Below the pieces are notes generated by a model, which saw nothing but the letters and a program-made list of their open reading frames with translations, was not told the DNA's origin and ran no database searches. Shown piece after piece: positions 2,625 to 16,065 of a DNA stretch of 17,350 nt. The translations under genes and the position numbers were made by a program. Numbering within the stretch: the stretch's first letter is position 1; each line of letters opens with the position of its first letter. The stretch is from Azolla caroliniana (Eukaryota; Plantae; Polypodiophyta), in contig JBHGNT010000702.1 of NCBI GenBank assembly GCA_043228905.1, forward strand, positions 1 to 17,350, given 5' to 3'.

Positions 2625-4499
2625 CTAGCTGGATGGAGTGAGGCATGCCGAAGCCGCCTGAACCAGAAGAGCTGTCTCGTTGGACCTGAGAGCTGCGTCA
2701 AATGCAGCTCTTGACCAACTTCCTGCCGGCGCGAATGTTGGGAGCAGATCGGTTCCATCTTCCAGCTGAAGCTAAGAAAGGACAGAGCAGGTCAGAAGGG
2801 TGAATGCAATGGCTGTAAACTGTGTGGCTGCTTACGGCATACGATTCAAGTCGACCTCCTGCAGCCTTGTACTTCAGCACCAGTACCGCTCTCTCCTCCT
2901 GCGCTTCACCATACGAGTAAACGGCGCGTAACGTTCTAGAGTCAGGCGCCGAAAGGGCCTTGAGTCCAACAAGCGTCTTGGTAATTTCAAGTGCATACGT
3001 TGCTCTGACACGCGGTGAATGCTGTTAGATAAATTTCTCGGAAGCACCTCAATTGCTGGTTTGACTCACTCATTGCACTCCTGCTCTACGCTCAAGTCTC
3101 TCGTTCCCTCCACTCCAAGCTTGCGCGCCTCAGCCGCATATGTTTCCGCCACGTTGAGCTCCACGGCCAATCGCTCTACCATGCGTAATCCGTTGTGCAA
3201 GTCCTTCTTGCGAGCGTCGATCTGCGCAACTAGATCTGCATGTGACGTTTCGAGGCTTTGCATTTCTTCGATCTGATCGTGAGGGATGAAGTGTATCAGC
3301 ATCGCAAGGACTATGGAAGCAAAGTTACGTACGGACTTACCTGTCTCTCGAACCATTCATTCGCCTCTTCACTCGTTAGACTGCCCTTCGGAGGAATCAA
3401 TGTTCCGGGCAGGGGTAAAGCTCCATTTCCAGCTCTCAGCCTGGCCAACTCTAACTCCGCATCCCCGATTTCGCGCATCAGCGTCAATGCCTCCTCCGTA
3501 TCCGCCTGCAGCGCTGCCACCGGACCTGGAGCATTGGTGACGGGTACAGCGGCCTTTGCACTGCGACGAGATTTCGAAGGCGTCGGTGGGGCCTGCATTG
3601 GCTTGGGGAGCAAGGAATCGCACAGCTCGTCGATCTCTGAGCGCAGCTTGAGGACAGTCGACTTGGCGGCGTCCATTTGCTCCTTGAGCGACTCTGCGGC
3701 TTGTTCTATAGCACGCAGAGATATGTTGATGGTTCTCAGTATGCGGAGCAGGCGCACTAGACGTCAAGTATAAACTCACCGAGAAGCTTGACATCCTGAA
3801 CGGTATGCACTGCACCGCCCGACTCCCCACCCAGCGTGTCCTCCAAGAACAGTCTCTTCGTATCAAGCTCCAAGTGAATGAACTTCAGCTTGGCATAGTA
3901 GTCCAGCATGGCCTTCTCTTCCTCCCGAATGCCTTCGGGCCACTTGGCAAAGGCGGCCCAGTCGATCTGCAGGCTCTCGTCCTGCACATTCTGAGCCTGG
4001 CCTGGCGTGGCGGATTGAAGTGCATCGGGCGCCTCGCTGGATCGACCGGCAGGCGAACGGAAGTGCTCGGATAGGCGCGCATTGAAGGCAGAGGAGAGAG
4101 CAGAGAGGTGAAGAGGTGGCTCAGTGGAGGAGCTGGAACGCTGAAGTTGTGATGCCAGACTAATGAGGAGGAAGTGCAGTGTTGGTCGAGATTCTAATGG
4201 CACCCACAAATAGGTAAACATGCTACTCACCGACGAGCATATGCAGCAGCTGTAGCCGCGTCCATTTTTGGTGCAGTATCAGCTGCGTCTGTGTCTTTGT
4301 CCGCACTCTCTTTGGCTTGGACGGATGCTGCTGCTTGAGCAGGCTGAGGTTGGATGAGCGATCGCTTGCCGCCCGAGCCCTTTGAGGCCAGGGGTACTCG
4401 CTTGTTGCTCTGCGGCGGCGGCACTGCTGTTTGCTTGCCAGTGCTACGCGGTGATGCGTTCTCCGCCGTTACTGCTGATCTTCTTCGCGTTGCAGGCAT
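2625..4499 (-). CDS. SOS7: Kinetochore protein Sos7 (Spc7/KNL1 partner, Kre28/Zwint-like), 510 aa; exons 4499-4231, 4159-3780, 3705-3341, 3272-3070, 3004-2836, 2771-2625
   Basis: Five GT-AG introns of 64-74 nt (donors GTGAGT, GTAAGT, GTAAGC) give one open frame of 1533 nt. LDYYAKLKFIHLELDTKRLFL resembles the Sos7 KL(R/K)FxYLE..TKxxF motif and is followed by long coiled-coil segments. Confidence 0.8.
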
Positions 4500-7405: not shown

Positions 7406-7881
7406 ATGAAGATGAAGCTCATCAACGCACTGGTTGCCGTCGTTTTCATGTGAGTTGAGACACTTGTACATTGATGCTGGAGCTTTACTGACACTCTTAC
7501 CTGTTGTCCTTTGTGCTCAGTGCTGCGTCGACGGCTCATGCCTTCAACTATGATGTCGGAGGAGCTCGACTGCTAGCTCGTGACGCGGACGCCCCCATCA
7601 TGTTGGCTCGTCATGTCGATGGTTCGCTAATGTTGCTCGTCGAGCGCGACTTCGCTGACTCGGCAGGGGGAGAAGCTCACCTCGCCACTCGTGACTTTCT
7701 TGACTTTAAGACCAAATTCCAGCAGATTGGTTGGAGGGCTTCCAATCTTTTCCGCCAGCCCACGTCCATCAGTCCAAAGGCGAAGCACGAGATCATGAAG
7801 AGCTACGAAGATGTGCCAAACGGAGGAGCTCTGGCGGCCGAGCAGATCAAAGAAATGAATGCAAGATTGAAGGCACAATAG
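7406..7881 (+). CDS. Small secreted cysteine-free protein / candidate effector, 134 aa; exons 7406-7449, 7521-7881
   Basis: Intron 7450-7520 (GTGAGT..ACTGAC..CTCAG). The spliced N-terminus MKMKLINALVAVVFIAASTAHA is a classical signal peptide ending in A-H-A. Four LxxR-type motifs follow. Confidence 0.85.
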
Positions 7882-8453
7882 GCGATTCGCGGAGATAACT
7901 ATCCTGGTCATGGGAGTCTAGAACAGTCAACTGGAGTCGCAACTCACGACGGCGTTGTCCCATCGATGCGTGGAACTCAACAAATCCACTCTCTCCGCCT
8001 CCAAGCGTAGCTTCTTCTCGAACACCCTCTACTCTTTCATGTTGCATCAGCCTACCTTGAATTCCTTTGCGCGCTGGTAGCCTCAGGAGCTTCAAAGTCG
8101 ATGCTATCTATCCGCGCGCCCCTTCCACTACAAGCTGTCTACAGTGTGACCTTGCTCGAACCTGCACAACGATGTGAAGTCCTCCCATGCTGTCTGAAGC
8201 TCAAATGTTGCCGTATGATCCTCTTTTAGAACCATGACCTTACTGACGGTATCAGACTGACGACTGGCGAACTTGAACTTCGTAGCAGAAAATGAGGAGA
8301 GCTTTCTGGCCTTCTCGGGCCAGTTGCTGTGGAGGGAGGTGCGGAGTTTCAATTTTTTTGACCAACAACAAATTGATCCAAGGTGAGGGATGCAAGGATT
8401 CTTCTGGCTCGGATTCCTTCACTTCTCGACCATATCAGACGTCGGCCTTCAGA

Positions 8454-9019
8454 ATGTCAACTTCGACTGCACCGCAAGATGCAGCTCCAACGCAGCAGCA
8501 GATTCTCTTCGCTCGTGCCCTCATTGCCACCTTTGCGCTATGGCCCGCGATGAAGCTGGCCGTGGCCGAGGAGTGGGGAGGCAGTGACTCGGCTGACAAG
8601 CGGGACTTTCTCATCTCCCACTTGGCCGATACATATGCCGGAACTCCACCTACGCAGCCCGACCTCGATGACTTGGCCGACGTGATTCTGGCCTACTTTG
8701 GCGACGAGTACGAAAGTACGTGGCGGGAAGGATTTGTCAGTTGCACAAGCTCTGCTTCGGCGATGACGCTGAGGCGGCGGAAAAGAGCGTTGCTGAGCTG
8801 GAACAGAGCGTTCCCAAGAGTGGAGCGGCGATGCAAGTCAAGAGGGGTGAACAGACGGACGGTGCCGGTATGCGAAGTGACGACTCCGATGACGGAGAAG
8901 ATGATGGCATGGACGTAGACGAACAACCGAGTGCCAACACTGCAGCTCCCCGCCCAAGGCAAGAGCCGATCGTGGATGAGGATGGCTTTACGACCGTTGT
9001 CAAGGGACGCAGGAGATGA
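8454..9019 (+). CDS. TSR2: Pre-rRNA-processing protein Tsr2 (Rps26 chaperone, WGG family); frameshifted at about 8714 in this sequence
   Basis: N-terminal half has WPAMKLAVAEEWGGSDSADKRDFL (WGG motif) and DLDDLADVILAYFGDEYE. The C-terminal half, in another frame, has YVAGRICQLHK, an acidic tract and the typical EPIVDEDGFTTVVKGRRR end. Confidence 0.9.
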
Positions 9020-9269: not shown

Positions 9270-11207
9270 TTATGCAGCACCCTTATCTGCTCCCGGAGCG
9301 TGGACGAAGAATAGCAAAAAGGTCATGAACCTGGAGGTCACGGGGGAGTCAACGTCAGATGTTAATCTTGAAAGAAGCTCGAGAATACTCACCAGAGGGG
9401 CAGTACGTAAACCAGATTGAAGATCACTGGCGTTTGTGGAGTGCCACGACCGGCGAGGGACCGCTGCAGCATGCTCCATGCGATTCCATTAGTACCAGGC
9501 TCGTACATGCCCACCGGTGCGAGTTCAACTGCGCGTGCAGCGCGCAGGTAAGGATCCATCTTGCTTTCGAATTGCGATGGCTGAGCTCCAGATGCATCAA
9601 TGCCAAAGAGTCCTGCAAATGGGTTGGTCGTTCCGTTTGCCTCGTTCTCCAGCCTGCCTTGAGCATGCATAGTCTGAAGAATACGGTAAATGACAGAGAG
9701 TGCCACCAGGACGAGTAGCACTCCAAGGAATCCACCGGGTCGCATGGAGCCATTCTCTCCGCGAGCGATGGGAATAAGCAGAAGACCTCCCGCGATGGCG
9801 ATGAGCTCGAGGAAACAGGCAATGATGGGACCAACGCGAACGAAATTGATAGGCGTGGCGTTGGGGAACGAAGCGAGAGCGCCTACAGCGTTGGCATCTT
9901 GAAGCGTCGCATCCCACTGACGCAGGTATACTCCCGTGTAGGCAGAGGAAACAGCAAAGATGATCAGAGCCACCAAGTTGAAGAATCGAAGCAGTCCCGA
10001 GACAGCTGGTACGCCACTCTTTGCGTTTCCTTGCTGTGCATAGAGCGCCAGCAAGGCGAGCAGTGGCTCGAGCTGGCAAAGTAAAATTGATTGTGAGCGA
10101 GGAATGTATTGCTGCCGCGTTCCAAAACTTACCAGTAGAGGAGGCATGATGGATAGGAGGGCATTCTCGGCGATGATCAAGGCTGTGGTTGGCACATTGT
10201 TCGACAGCCAGGCACGAATACCAAAAGTGGCGACCATCACGATACTGTACGAGGTGGCGGCGTGGTCAGGTTCACGTCTATTGCTTGCGCCAGACCGAAA
10301 CTCACCCGAAGAGGAACACAGTGAAAAGGACGTGTGCGATCAGACTGGATCGACGCAGGAGGCGCACAAGGAACAATGGAATCAGAGCCAAGGTCGCCAG
10401 GATCCAAACGACAGATCTGAGCGAACGAAAAAAAAATGCATAGTGGGAGTAAGAAACATATATTGTGCTAAAGGAGGGGAAAGGGGGTACGTGTCCTCCT
10501 GTCCGTTCCACTCACGCGGCCAAGTCACCGTTTTTGTAGGGAACTCCACCTACGATCGTGTCCAGCCATCCAATGTCAGGAGCGTTCAAGTTGTTGATGT
10601 CCGCTGCGGGACTTCCGTTTCCAGATGGATCGCCCGTGACAGCTGGCAGAACTGAGCCTACAAGCTGGGTAGACGTGGGCTCGGTATCCTCGAATGACAG
10701 TGGAATCAGGGTGGGCTGGGCATTTTGACGACGACGAAGAGCAACTCGCGTGGGAATTCCACGAGCAGAGAGGCCGTCGGAATCAGCACTCAACGTAACC
10801 ATCGATGGGACATCGGTGGCGGAGCAGAGATACTGACTCCCAGAAGGTGATCCAGCTGCACAACCAAAGGCACCGGCGACGTATGTCCAGGCCGTGAGTA
10901 CAGCTTCCTTGCCACTGGTTGAGGCAGAGGCAGTCATGCTGGCAGTCGCGGGCATGGAAGTGGAGTTGCCTGAGGTGCTCGTTGGCATGGAGCTGGAGTT
11001 GCCAGCAGCGGTACTTGTCATTGCAGAGCTTGAGCTGGAGTTGGACGAAGCTGAAGTACTGCTTGCCATAGAGCTGGATCCATCAGAGGTCGAAGACTCT
11101 GCCGCGTCTCTACCTGCAGACGTGCTGCTGGCAGCGCTCGTCGAGGCTGCAGATGAGGAACTCTGTGTAGAACTGGATGGCATGCTGGCAGAGGCAGTAC
11201 TAGATGC

Positions 11208-11239
<32 letters not shown>

Positions 11240-12399
11240 CCGTAGCGCTAGCCGAGTCGGTAGAGCTACTCATAGCAGTGGTGGACGAAGCTGCAGCTGA
11301 GGAGCTCGAATCGGCAACGGCAGCAACACGTGATGCGCCTGATGCGGCACTGGATGACGACGATTCAGCAGAGGTGCTCGAAGCCGCAGACGAACTTGAG
11401 GGGGCCATGGTGGTCGAAGCGCTGGATGAGACAGTGCTGGAAGCAGAAGAGCTCGACTCCTTCGTACTGCTAGCACTTGAGGACGCCATGGAGTCAGTGG
11501 AGGCGACTGAGCTTGATGAATCCGTGGCGGCGGCAGGACGAGCAGCAGCAGACGTGGAAGAATCCATCGATGCAGATGAGCTGCTGGAGACAGTTGCACT
11601 TGAAGAGGTGACAGCGGAACTGCTCTCCATGCTCGAGGAAGAAGCTGCACTTGATGAACTTGAAACCATGCTGGAGGCGGCAGTGGCTTCAGATGTGCTT
11701 GACGATGAGGCTGCCGACGACATCATCGAGGCGACTGATGTTGAATCAGCGAACGATGCACCGGCGAGCAAGCCCTTGATGGAGTCGCCTGTCAGTGATC
11801 CAGAGAGCGCACCCGACAGCATGCTGGCCAGAGCTCCCATCTCATCGACCGTCGAAGTGGGACTGGCATCGACCGTTGAAGTCAGACCGGTGGAAAAGCT
11901 CTCCGTGACGCTTGTGGCGAAAGTTGAGACACTGGTAGAGTCTACAGAAGCTGAGCTTGAAGCAGGCTCGTCAGAGGGCTCGCCTGCCTGTGCGACCGCA
12001 TTTGCAACTGCATCAGGTTCCTGAGGCCTGAAGAGTCAATTGAATACGTCAGCTCAGTGGATGAAGGCGAAAAGCCCCAGTATCTACTCACTGCCTCTTC
12101 CTGTAAACGCGGACCATCTTGGAAGGATTGAAACCTCCCATCTCGAGGGGACCCCTTCTGCGGTCCTCTGAAAATGAACAAAGAAGTGACACCATGTTAG
12201 CGACATGGAGTAGGTAAAGGTGAAGACGGAGGCAGTACTCACCCATCAACATGCGTCTCATCTCAGCACTGCCTCGAGGCACGTAGTTGCCTCTCATAAC
12301 TTGCTTGGCATCGGCTTGAAGGCCCTCGGACGGTAGCGAACTGGCCAGCAGAACGGCCACCGTGACGAGTTGCAAGAAGGAAGTTGACGCCGGCGTCAT
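9270..12399 (-). CDS. Signal peptide + Ser/Thr/Ala-rich mucin-like ectodomain + seven-transmembrane protein (RTA1/DUF3112-like 7TM), 902 aa; exons 12399-12243, 12167-12092, 12027-10516, 10416-10306, 10244-10133, 10072-9393, 9330-9270
   Basis: Six introns with GTGAGT/GTAAGT donors and CAG acceptors (75, 64, 99, 61, 60, 62 nt) are phase-compatible and give 2709 nt of open frame. Hydrophobic N-terminus FLQLVTVAVLLASS, about 375 aa of S/T/A-rich sequence, GGVPYKNGDLAAS before TM1, and seven hydrophobic segments ending VIFNLVYVLPLWFMTFLLFFV. Confidence 0.85.
11209..11238. repeat. (CTG)10 microsatellite encoding poly-Ser in the mucin stalk (minus strand)
   Basis: Ten perfect CTG units read directly from the sequence. 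Confidence 0.95.
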
Positions 12400-13734: not shown

Positions 13735-15942
13735 TTAGCTTAAACTTGACTTTGTGCTGCTACGACCCCCAGAGCTCCAGAACGGAGGCCTAGGGGGTGC
13801 TGCAAACGAATCGTTTATGCCTGGAATCGCAAGCCGCGAGTCGTGTTGAGGAAGTAATTGTGCAACGCTCCCAGCAGAGCTCCGGTGATTGAGATCTGTC
13901 GTGTCGGGGAACACGTCGGGGCCATACTGATCGCGCAGCTGACTCAGGTAATTCTGCGTGCAGAGGAGAGTATTCAGCAGCTCGTCTATATCTGGGGGAG
14001 CTCATTCGACACTTACGCTCTTGATCGTTCCCACGGCATCCCTGTCAAGTCTATATTGCTTGGGAGTCATGCCTTTTCCAAATGTGTAGGTGACGTGGTC
14101 GCCGCAGAGTAAACTGGTGACGATGCAGAAGAGATGAAACGGCACCAATCCAAACGCGACAGCATAGATCTTGAGCAATGCCTTCCTCTCGAATCGAACG
14201 ATCGGGCCCTTGCAGCCTTCGAGCAGGGCACGACTGAAGCAAACATCGCCGCTTGCAGCTGCCTCGACGAACGGACTGTAGTAGCCACAGCAATTGAGCG
14301 CTTGCTGAACAATCAGACGCTCGGGTGTACTGAAGCCACGGCTCCACAGCTGGTTCATCTTGCCGTCTAGGTTGAATTGTCTGCGCTTGTAGGCAATATA
14401 TCCTGGCGCAACGATGAGACCAAAACACGGCCACAGCAAAAGAGCGTAGAACGAAAGGAACATGCGGTTATTGAGAAGGATCCCGGCCCATCCAAGGATC
14501 ATGGTGAAGATGCAGAGTGCCATGGCTGCGGTACCGAGCTGAATCTCGATCATGTTGGCAGCCAACACCACGTCGGAGTGAGTCCAAATATTCGCCCAAA
14601 GGAGCATGAGCATTGTGAAGAGTACGCATGAGTACACAGTGAGCTTCACAAACGCCGTCAGCGAAGGGTCAGTCAGAGTGCGAAACAAGCTTGTTCGAGC
14701 ACATGCACTTACAAGACTATTGGCCACGACGAGTGTCCACTTGAATTTGTTCCATCGCAGTCGTCGCCCATCAGCACCTCGTGTCTTGATACCCAGCTTG
14801 AGCAGCAGCTTTCCACCTTTACTCTGGGGCAAGCTTTTCACCGTGCGCTCGTCAGAGTAGCCCTTTTGTAGGTGATGAAGCTGACTCGAGTTGGTTGGAT
14901 CGTAACTTTGTCTCGCCGAAAGACGATCCTCGTCCTCGGGACTGCTGGCATCTCGACTGCTCTCTGCCTGATCTTCTTCGTGCCTGACCGTCCTCCTGCG
15001 GATGCCTATCGCCGAGAGCACACCTGCTGATTGTTGCATGGAATTGTGCTCGCTTTCGTCATCGAGCTGGACACCATCGTTGTCTTCGTAGTCGCCAGCG
15101 CCAAGCTCTGGATGTCCACCTCCATCAGGACCCCAAGCTGCTCGTCCTCGACCTCTCTTTGCCATGCGTAGTTGTTGGTCGGGCTTGGAAGGCGATCCAA
15201 TGTCGATAGCTTGCAATTTCGCGTTGGCAATTTCCATGCTGGATGCGCTGAGCGAGGGAGGTGTTTGCCCCGAGCCAAGCCTTCGCGTCGATGTTGATGC
15301 ACCGGGTACCCTCAACCTCGCGCCGGAAGTGCTGTAATTCGTGTCCTCATACAAGCTGTCAGAGGCACTCAGAGGATGCAGGCCCACAGCAGGACTGTTT
15401 GTGAGCGATCGAGGAGGTGTTTCCGGTTGACTGGCGCTCCTGCGTTGAATGGCACCCCATCCAGCCTGAGAGCGAGCCTCGCGACGTGCAGCTGCTCCCC
15501 ACTGTTGACTGCTGCCAGAGATGGACGGCGTCGGGCTCTTGGTGGGCAGGTAGTGGGTGGTGAGGTTGGGCGATGATGGAGCGGAGCTACCTACACTGCC
15601 CGCGATGCCAACGCCCGGGCGAGGTGGCGGAGGCAGCTCAGGCATGAGGTAGATATCTGACAAGTTGGACTGCTCAAGGTTCGAGACGCCCAGACCCCCG
15701 TGGGATGCGTCGAGGGGATGAGTCACATCGTCGTAGGACGATGCCTTGCGCAGATGCTGACCCTCGCTGTCGTCGTAGGGGTTCGGAGTACTGAACCCGG
15801 CTGTCTCTTCATTATGATGCTCGTCAGCATCAGTGTCATCATCGTCTTGCGAAGGATGGGCCACGCGCTCCGACTCGATGGGGAGGCCGCTGTAGTTCGA
15901 CGTCGACTCCTGCCGTTCTGAAGCTCCCTTGGAGCGTGCCAT
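13735..15942 (-). CDS. TSP2: Tetraspanin of the basidiomycete Tsp2 family, 691 aa; exons 15942-14713, 14643-14017, 13953-13735
   Basis: Long disordered N-tail, RWNKFKWTLVVAN, GWAGILLNNR, PGYIAYKRRQFNLDGK, the CCGY motif in the large loop, four TM segments, and HVTYTFGKGMTPKQYRL..NYLSQLRDQYG. Introns are 14712-14644 (GTAAGT..GCTGAC..AAG) and 14016-13954 (GTAAGT..GCAG). In-frame ATGs at 16035/16032 are alternative starts. Confidence 0.9.
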
Positions 15943-16065
15943 GCTGGCGAGACTGTGGGCCGTGAGGGTGCGAGGCTGGATGAGGAGATGAAGAGCGAAA
16001 CGTGAAGGGGTGTAGGTGGTGAAATTGAGCATCATAACAGTTTCCCACTGTCACCGCAACAGTAC

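Follow-up and report, generated by a model that had tools for sequence, protein, structure and literature searches.

The entire contig JBHGNT010000702.1 of the Azolla caroliniana assembly GCA_043228905.1, a stretch of 17,350 bp which we call the window, was analyzed. It consists of smut-class fungal DNA and is probably a passenger contig in this assembly, whose 523 Mb far exceed the roughly 20 Mb of such fungi. The minus strand of the window carries a gene for a protein of 902 amino acids which combines a predicted signal peptide and a large Ser/Thr-rich ectodomain with a seven-transmembrane (7TM) domain. The sequence comparisons reported here point to a real, conserved and apparently undescribed subfamily of the RTA1/DUF7702/DUF3112 superfamily, the ectodomain of which is predicted to be processed. 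Our preferred reading, to which we give somewhat less than an even chance, is a Kex2-processed two-part cell-surface sensor conserved across smut-class fungi. Large ectodomains are rare among fungal 7TM proteins. Across the Ustilaginomycotina the present family is conserved, and it includes an uncharacterised protein, UMAG_02615, of the model fungus Ustilago maydis.

Gene structure

The 902-residue frame runs from the ATG at 12399 to the stop codon at 9270 and results from splicing of seven minus-strand exons at six GT..AG introns. All six introns show GTGAGT or GTAAGT donors and CAG acceptors. Introns 1 and 2 were assigned by splice signals and reading frame; the downstream alternative acceptors listed for them all break the frame. 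Intron 3 (10515-10417), a junction for which the first-pass annotation had asked for confirmation, has no canonical branch point. It is fixed by homology, since the full-length orthologues are single, intron-free open reading frames (ORFs) that match across the junction colinearly and without a gap. Furthermore, the ORF calls P0046, P0059 and P0090 terminate at exactly the intron 3 residue, which points to an intron common to these genes. The earlier proposal that several ORF fragments join into one 902-residue gene was upheld by the splicing and by the single-ORF orthologues with the same order of parts. A predicted signal peptide, Ser/Thr stalk, two-Cys module, seven hydrophobic helices and a very short C-terminal tail were all recovered in the spliced protein.

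For Tilletiopsis washingtonensis the annotation splits the orthologue into two genes, P0090 and P0009, which share a contig. The halves end and begin at the positions of introns 3 and 4, the start of P0009 being the start of exon 5. Therefore, this annotation is best read as a missed exon. When the transmembrane (TM) part was searched against its own 523-Mb assembly, the locus described here was the only match.

Orthologues and phylogeny

Word searches found eight longer and four near-length proteins. A profile search of 1.84 billion representatives yielded 51 matches at E ≤ 0.001, of which 21 reached E ≤ 1e-30. Named members are from Meira miltonrushii, Acaromyces ingoldii, Violaceomyces palustris, Tilletiopsis washingtonensis, Pseudozyma flocculosa, Testicularia cyperi, Ustilago bromivora, Ustilago sp. 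and U. maydis (UMAG_02615), all of which we take to be Ustilaginomycotina. The TM part of the orthologues is 49-69% identical to that of the 902-residue protein. Whether orthologues keep the ectodomain had been raised as a check, and they do: UMAG_02615 and the proteins of Pseudozyma, Meira, Acaromyces and Violaceomyces carry it in the same order as single ORFs.

A maximum-likelihood tree of 37 TM parts, rooted at its midpoint only, placed the 20 sequences of the ectodomain family on one branch (97/96), apart from the relatives with a short N-terminus. Within this branch the 902-residue protein adjoins Tilletiopsis (95/99). A second family with a long N-terminus (four sequences) and 13 short relatives formed separate branches. 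Long relatives (589-2000 residues) of the short DUF7702-like group were absent among 7996 scored candidates, which is weak evidence.

A sister 7TM family without Pfam match was observed in Thecaphora, P. flocculosa, Acaromyces and Exobasidium (P0044, P0045/P0079, P0047/P0080, P0049, P0051). In its fuller members a separate long N-terminus, rich in Thr and Cys, carries basic sites with Trp after them, reminiscent of the RR-Trp start of the agonist Pit2.

The ectodomain and its predicted cleavage

Ectodomains were scored in 20 sequences reaching upstream of TM1. The near-copies P0012-P0016, P0019, P0024, P0031, P0053, P0078, P0087 and P0090 were left out. The regular expressions for the motifs were written after the alignment had been viewed. 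The N-terminal hydrophobic segment of the 902-residue protein (residues 8-19, Kyte-Doolittle mean of 2.5 over 12 residues) has a comparable counterpart in 16 of the 20 sequences; the four others look N-terminally truncated. Two short motifs are conserved at opposite ends of a variable linker. Motif A was matched in 16/20 sequences versus 0.48 expected from shuffles. Motif B, a Trp/Gly-containing loop with Cys467 and Cys479 as the sole cysteines of the ectodomain, was found in 18/20 versus 0 expected. It is missing in Violaceomyces and Tilletiopsis, and in U. bromivora Ser replaces the first Cys.

Between the Cys loop and TM1 a KR or RR site, usually followed by Gln, is present in 16 of the 18 sequences that have the loop. 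Shuffling within this segment gave a mean of 4.65 and a maximum of 11 (n = 500). When whole ectodomains were shuffled, a test from which P0027 fell out, 15 sequences had the site versus a mean of 2.9 and a maximum of 8. Arg-Gln occurs in this region in 17/20 sequences. The three of the 20 without a dibasic site there contain a monobasic Arg instead, in two cases followed by Gln. The density of dibasic sites per 100 residues is 2.1 after the Cys loop versus 0.49 before it. Ahead of motif A, a dibasic site was detected in six of 15 sequences examined, the 902-residue protein included. The region around the basic site is predicted to be exposed because it is disordered in AlphaFold models. The protein thus resembles a Kex2 substrate in carrying a KR/RR site, with predicted exposure, in a protein of the secretory pathway.

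Since this Kex2-type site is conserved and separates the Cys loop from TM1, cleavage probably detaches the stalk from the membrane part instead of leaving it as a covalent tether. The sole Cys of the membrane part sits in TM5; consequently, a cut at R511 would leave no covalent link between the fragments. In U. maydis, secreted proteins undergo processing at RR sites (PMC5923269), and the propeptide of Ywp1 remains bound to its core after the Kex2 cut (PMC6258133). Neither the Kex2 P-domain nor the sister family gave a match in the own assembly with the queries used, and this assembly probably contains only part of the fungus.

The stalk (residues 101-450) consists of 56% Ser+Thr and 75% Ser+Thr+Ala and carries three N-glycosylation sequons at 407, 421 and 432. 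Tandem repeats were rejected as its origin, since one 30-bp triplet run is the only repeat. The ectodomain comprises 560 residues versus 199-434 in the fuller orthologues, most of which reach about half its length; shorter ones occur only in apparently N-truncated calls. The region upstream of the Cys loop measures 427 residues with 47% Ser+Thr here versus 58-224 residues with 6-51% in orthologues, the lowest value being that of P. flocculosa. P0027 has nothing upstream of the loop. Thus the stalk exceeds that of any orthologue seen. A BLASTP comparison of exon 3 with UMAG_02615 aligned only from the Cys loop onward (36% over 170, E 9e-16). Towards the membrane, the C-terminal half of a conserved juxtamembrane stub aligns to the N-terminus of the short relatives. 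Judged by these alignments, the mucin of 350 residues is an expansion in the lineage of this gene and stalk length is lineage-specific. The conserved ectodomain feature of the family is the set of short motifs together with the Kex2-type basic site, not a long mucin. The Ser/Thr-rich stalk described in the first-pass annotation stands for this protein.

The seven-helix domain

Seven hydrophobic segments lie between residues 583 and 893, and the third extracellular loop (ECL3) is 83 residues long. An N-out/C-in topology is indicated by short basic loops 1, 3 and 5 inside and by loops 4 and 6 outside, which carry the sequons at 727 and 802. Orthologue tails measure 15-27 residues from the His that ends TM7 (n = 14). 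AlphaFold models of two orthologues, the Meira protein (pLDDT 50.7, the predicted local distance difference test score; predicted template modelling score, pTM, 0.46) and P0027 (pLDDT 67.0, pTM 0.66), exhibited seven long helices, with a pLDDT below 50 for both ectodomains. The VIA structure comparison matched G-protein-coupled receptors (GPCRs) and microbial rhodopsins alike, with Z 11-14 (best 13.2 and 13.9) and a root-mean-square deviation of 3.4-5.5, about 4 for the best matches. No adhesion GPCR was among its best 50 rows, and a PDB sequence search gave no match at E ≤ 5. As modelled, the domain has a generic GPCR/rhodopsin-type fold.

Pfam returned nothing for pieces of the window or close homologues (12 homologues, P0024 and P0025). 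In particular, PF04479, PF24800 and PF11309 matched none of the 16 close-family queries, that is, these proteins and two window pieces. Among 16 short relatives, DUF7702 was found in eight and RTA1 in four at E ≤ 0.1, with two above the DUF7702 cut-off. The family profile reached proteins with a short N-terminus, e.g. from Sporobolomyces, at E 7e-12 to 3e-4. HHalign aligned the family to the short DUF7702-like relatives with 99.66% and E 3e-25 over 208 columns. In the ESM Atlas the TM part fell to DUF7702/DUF3112/RTA1 clusters at 0.89-0.92 and full UMAG_02615 at no more than 0.87; all ten of the ten best matches having a family belong to the same family or clan. By these profile and embedding matches the 7TM domain is a divergent member of the RTA1/DUF7702/DUF3112 superfamily. 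The RTA1/DUF3112-type assignment of the first-pass annotation is thereby backed despite the nil Pfam result, and the profile comparison proposed there led to the same superfamily.

Conservation is highest in two cytoplasmic loops and in TM7. Mean column identity over 14 orthologues is 0.93 for the first and 0.88 for the third intracellular loop (ICL1, ICL3) and 0.82 for TM7, versus 0.61-0.74 for TM1-6. The same orthologues gave 0.70 for the distal ECL3, 0.50 for ECL2 and 0.42 for the C-terminal tail. Invariant polar residues inside helices are R629, E658, R685, N688, R786 and N875.

UMAG_02615 in the literature

The searched literature, with subscription papers and bioRxiv supplements outside its scope, contained no main text naming UMAG_02615 or um02615, and its accessible portions no paper on a mucin-7TM or Kex2-cut architecture of RTA1/DUF3112/DUF7702 proteins. 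This agrees with the earlier suggestion that the architecture has not been described. In print, um02615 was found only within a computed set of 826 Ser/Thr-rich membrane proteins (PMC3295589). It does not appear among the 34 U. maydis 7TM proteins of a recent structure-based compilation (PMC13652807) or in the accessible supplementary lists of a surface-cue study (PMC4102580, nine files) and a Ros1 study (PMC4917244, six files). Two entries of the 34-protein list, UMAG_00299 and UMAG_02021, show by eye a signal peptide and a shorter pro-region before the 7TM domain. Thus a cleavable extension at the N-terminus is in itself no peculiarity of the UMAG_02615 family. Identity of UMAG_02615 with Pit1/Gpe1 or Dik6 was rejected; those proteins have other UMAG numbers and short N-termini.

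Proposed mechanism and alternatives

A two-part sensor could work as follows. One ORF encodes signal peptide, motif A, stalk, two-Cys loop, basic site, stub and 7TM domain. As common in the secretory pathway, the signal peptide would be removed, the stalk O-mannosylated and a Cys467-Cys479 disulfide formed. Given the KR/RR-Gln sites, Kex2 would cut after R77 and R511. The products would be a fragment of about 430 residues with motif A, stalk and Cys loop, and a 7TM fragment with a 52-residue extension before a conserved GWLD motif. The outer fragment might be held non-covalently on the stub and the distal ECL3 via motif A, motif B or both and extend into the cell wall, where its displacement or release could alter the state of the receptor. 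Output might run via ICL1 and ICL3, both near-invariant, and reach G-alpha or some other adaptor as cytoplasmic partner, given that the tail is not long enough for an arrestin or kinase scaffold. A bolder version is doubtful: that smut fungi independently evolved an equivalent of adhesion GPCRs from an RTA1-type 7TM protein, with Kex2 replacing GAIN autoproteolysis, a clamped outer fragment extending into the wall, and the stub as tethered agonist for G-protein signalling once force or proteases remove that fragment. If true, it would give the RTA1/DUF3112 superfamily a clear receptor function.

Several points weigh against a sensor. The fold matches GPCRs and microbial rhodopsins equally and is therefore uninformative on G-protein coupling, and Foldseek found no match in the PDB at E ≤ 0.001 (best E 0.09). 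A motif scan of the 902-residue protein detected neither DRY nor NPxxY, GPCR signatures that are missing from many fungal GPCRs. The scored family sequences are related and hence not independent, four of the 20 being 80-90% identical to each other. The Cys loop is dispensable because it is missing in two of the 20, including Tilletiopsis as the closest named relative. In vitro, about one third of predicted Kex2 substrates escaped the cut, among them a family whose KR is conserved (PMC2515848). Listings give class XII (DUF3112) as uncharacterised (PMC13308352, PMC4683645), and the characterised superfamily members RTA1 and RSB1 are filed as lipid-translocating exporters (PMC9697666). Finally, expression of UMAG_02615 was flat at 6.6-7.4 log2 across the 127 arrays shown of 168, among them samples from hydrophobic surfaces and in planta. 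Parafilm gave a slightly lower value (6.9) than glass (7.2-7.3), with 6.8-6.9 for hydroxy fatty acid and 7.0 in a sho1 msb2 mutant (PMC9767968); batch normalisation may flatten these values. A complex prediction of the Cys-loop piece (P0001 residues 90-127) on the 7TM fragment (residues 137-492) scored 0.00 without an alignment and with a partner pLDDT below 50, and counts neither way. The first-pass annotation had proposed a cell-wall or host-surface sensor. A surface sensor is kept as best guess, and its host-surface part is weakened because UMAG_02615 is flat across the arrays and the family occurs in Meira, Acaromyces and P. flocculosa, which we take to be yeasts and not smut pathogens.

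The protein could instead be an RTA1/Rsb1-like lipid translocator or membrane-homeostasis protein, its ectodomain being a glycosylated pro-region that serves folding, trafficking or anchoring in the wall and is discarded after the Kex2 cut. The superfamily tie to RTA1/DUF7702, the exporter role described for RTA1 and RSB1, the invariant polar residues within helices and the constitutive expression of UMAG_02615 suit such a function. It is nevertheless somewhat unlikely, as the direct Pfam score for RTA1 is nil, the cytoplasmic loops are among the best-conserved regions, and the short relatives function without a pro-region, so that the conservation of motifs A and B calls for an explanation. 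For the conserved end motifs, extracellular face and inner loops, partners on both sides offer an easier explanation than a pro-region that can be disposed of. Interest would be modest for a lipid transporter with a pro-region. The family allows the question of receptor versus transporter for RTA1/DUF3112-type proteins, and a fungal cleave-and-hold logic, to be addressed.

Two further readings differ in the fate of the ectodomain. A Kex2-released fragment or the Trp/Gly Cys-loop peptide might diffuse and act on its own 7TM domain as agonist or antagonist, a ligand-receptor pair in one ORF comparable to Gpe1 and Pit2, the latter from an adjacent gene. Basic sites flank the fragment, often with a second site just after the aromatic/Gly loop kept in 18/20 sequences, the large conserved distal ECL3 could form a pocket, and the Pit2 agonist is likewise a Trp/Gly-rich peptide behind an RR site (PMC13652807). 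We consider this unlikely: two of 20 sequences lost the loop while the 7TM domain remains conserved, most orthologues have no basic site directly N-terminal to it, and the likeness to Pit2 was judged by eye only. An uncleaved mucin-7TM mechanosensor with the stalk as covalent tether into the wall, the picture of the first-pass annotation, would suit the unbroken ORF with its mucin-like stalk of 350 residues, and some conserved KR sites are uncut in native proteins (PMC2515848). The strong enrichment of basic sites exactly between loop and TM1, and the wide variation in stalk length and composition, make it very unlikely. A split into two genes, one for a secreted mucin and one for a short 7TM protein, or a mis-spliced model would accord with the Tilletiopsis annotation and with a gene model resting on DNA-level evidence. 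This is scarcely credible, since single-ORF orthologues cross the junction gap-free, the Tilletiopsis halves fit a gene caller that missed an exon, and the locus offers no ATG or signal peptide for a stand-alone 7TM protein. The Kex2-processed two-part sensor remains the reading that we tentatively favour.

Feature coordinates and neighbouring genes

Table 1: Positions within the window of the gene for the 902-residue protein and its parts.
Feature	Position	Strand	Basis or remark
Whole gene	9270..12399	(-)	7 exons, 902 residues
Exons	12399-12243, 12167-12092, 12027-10516, 10416-10306, 10244-10133, 10072-9393, 9330-9270	(-)	Splicing; orthologue colinearity
Introns	12242-12168, 12091-12028, 10515-10417, 10305-10245, 10132-10073, 9392-9331	(-)	GT..AG
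Predicted signal peptide, about residues 1-26	12322..12399	(-)	Hydrophobic segment; putative cleavage
First Kex2-type site, K76-R77 before Gln78, end of basic pro-region	12092..12099	(-)	Sequence
Motif A, residues 82-93, short conserved Ala-rich segment preceding the stalk	11982..12017	(-)	Regular expression
Ser/Thr/Ala-rich mucin-like stalk, residues 101-450	10911..11960	(-)	Composition
Motif B, Trp/Gly two-Cys loop, residues 458-479	10824..10889	(-)	Regular expression
Second Kex2-type site, L508-R-R-R511 before Gln512, between Cys loop and TM1	10725..10739	(-)	Conservation
Conserved juxtamembrane stub, residues 546-582	10516..10625	(-)	Orthologue alignment; would remain on membrane fragment
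7TM domain, residues 583-893, RTA1/DUF7702/DUF3112 superfamily	9300..10415	(-)	Hydrophobicity, models, profiles
Cytoplasmic tail of 9 residues and stop codon	9270..9299	(-)	Sequence

The upstream same-strand neighbour (14002-16050, minus strand) encodes a tetraspanin-like protein, the long N-terminus of which is disordered (PF00335, E 4.7e-6, below cut-off). A TSR2 pre-rRNA processing gene (8286-9019, plus strand; PF10273, E 1.2e-14) and the 7TM gene are convergent. At 7406-7881 on the plus strand, a gene with one intron (about 7451-7520) encodes a small predicted secreted protein without Pfam match. Its four Leu-x-x-Arg repeats followed by Asp or His look like a Kex2-type repeat precursor or effector. 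An open frame running off the contig end (16683-17350, plus strand) has an Ala-rich N-terminus followed by hydrophobic helices and would be an unannotated membrane protein. A weak match to the Sos7 kinetochore protein was observed at 3760-4278 on the minus strand (PF20882, E 0.003, below cut-off).

Comparison with known systems

With RTA1, DUF7702 (PF24800) and DUF3112 (PF11309, class XII) proteins the family shares a Gly-Gly-x-Pro...Asp-Leu-Ala-x-Ser N-terminal motif, the Arg of TM2 and Glu-Pro in TM3. It differs by its signal peptide, by an ectodomain of 200-560 residues, predicted to be processed, versus about 10-25 residues in the short relatives, and by the 83-residue ECL3. The Pth11/CFEM-7TM proteins (class XIV) are likewise fungal 7TM proteins with an extracellular Cys-containing module, and Pth11 senses surface cues for appressoria (PMC13308352, PMC4683645). 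The two-Cys loop is not CFEM, and those proteins belong to Pezizomycotina, the present ones to Ustilaginomycotina. Pfam CFEM, fungal-rhodopsin and Pth11-type PF20684 matched neither window pieces nor homologues. Msb2 and Hkr1 likewise have an ectodomain rich in Ser/Thr, with cleavage upstream of the membrane (PMC3295589), but are single-pass proteins with a cytoplasmic tail, unlike the 7TM protein with its nine-residue tail. Gpe1 (Pit1), the peptide-activated GPCR of U. maydis, is also a smut-fungal orphan-type 7TM protein with activation linked to proteolysis. In contrast to UMAG_02615, which is another protein, it has a 35-residue N-terminus, a 120-residue C-tail, an ECL2-TM3 disulfide and a ligand, Pit2, from a separate gene (PMC13652807).

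Animal adhesion GPCRs (class B2) are defined by GAIN, GPS and Stachel elements (PMC13197933). A survey of 1357 genomes found adhesion-class receptors apparently absent from fungi (PMC12842992), and another describes such receptors without N-terminal domains and absent from Basidiomycota (PMC3251606). In the 902-residue protein, motif scans found no GPS of the CxCxHL|T type and, where the membrane fragment would begin, no Stachel core TxFxxLM. Pfam detected no GAIN/GPS in the window or 12 homologues, in agreement with the first-pass annotation, and no class B 7TM domain (7tm_2, PF00002) at E ≤ 0.1 or E ≤ 1. Kex2, and not autoproteolysis, would account for the cut. By these sequence criteria the protein is not an adhesion GPCR by membership. 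By analogy, it may work like one: it has a large extracellular N-terminus, presumably glycosylated at its stalk and sequons, a predicted cleavage near TM1 and a conserved stub that would remain on the membrane fragment.

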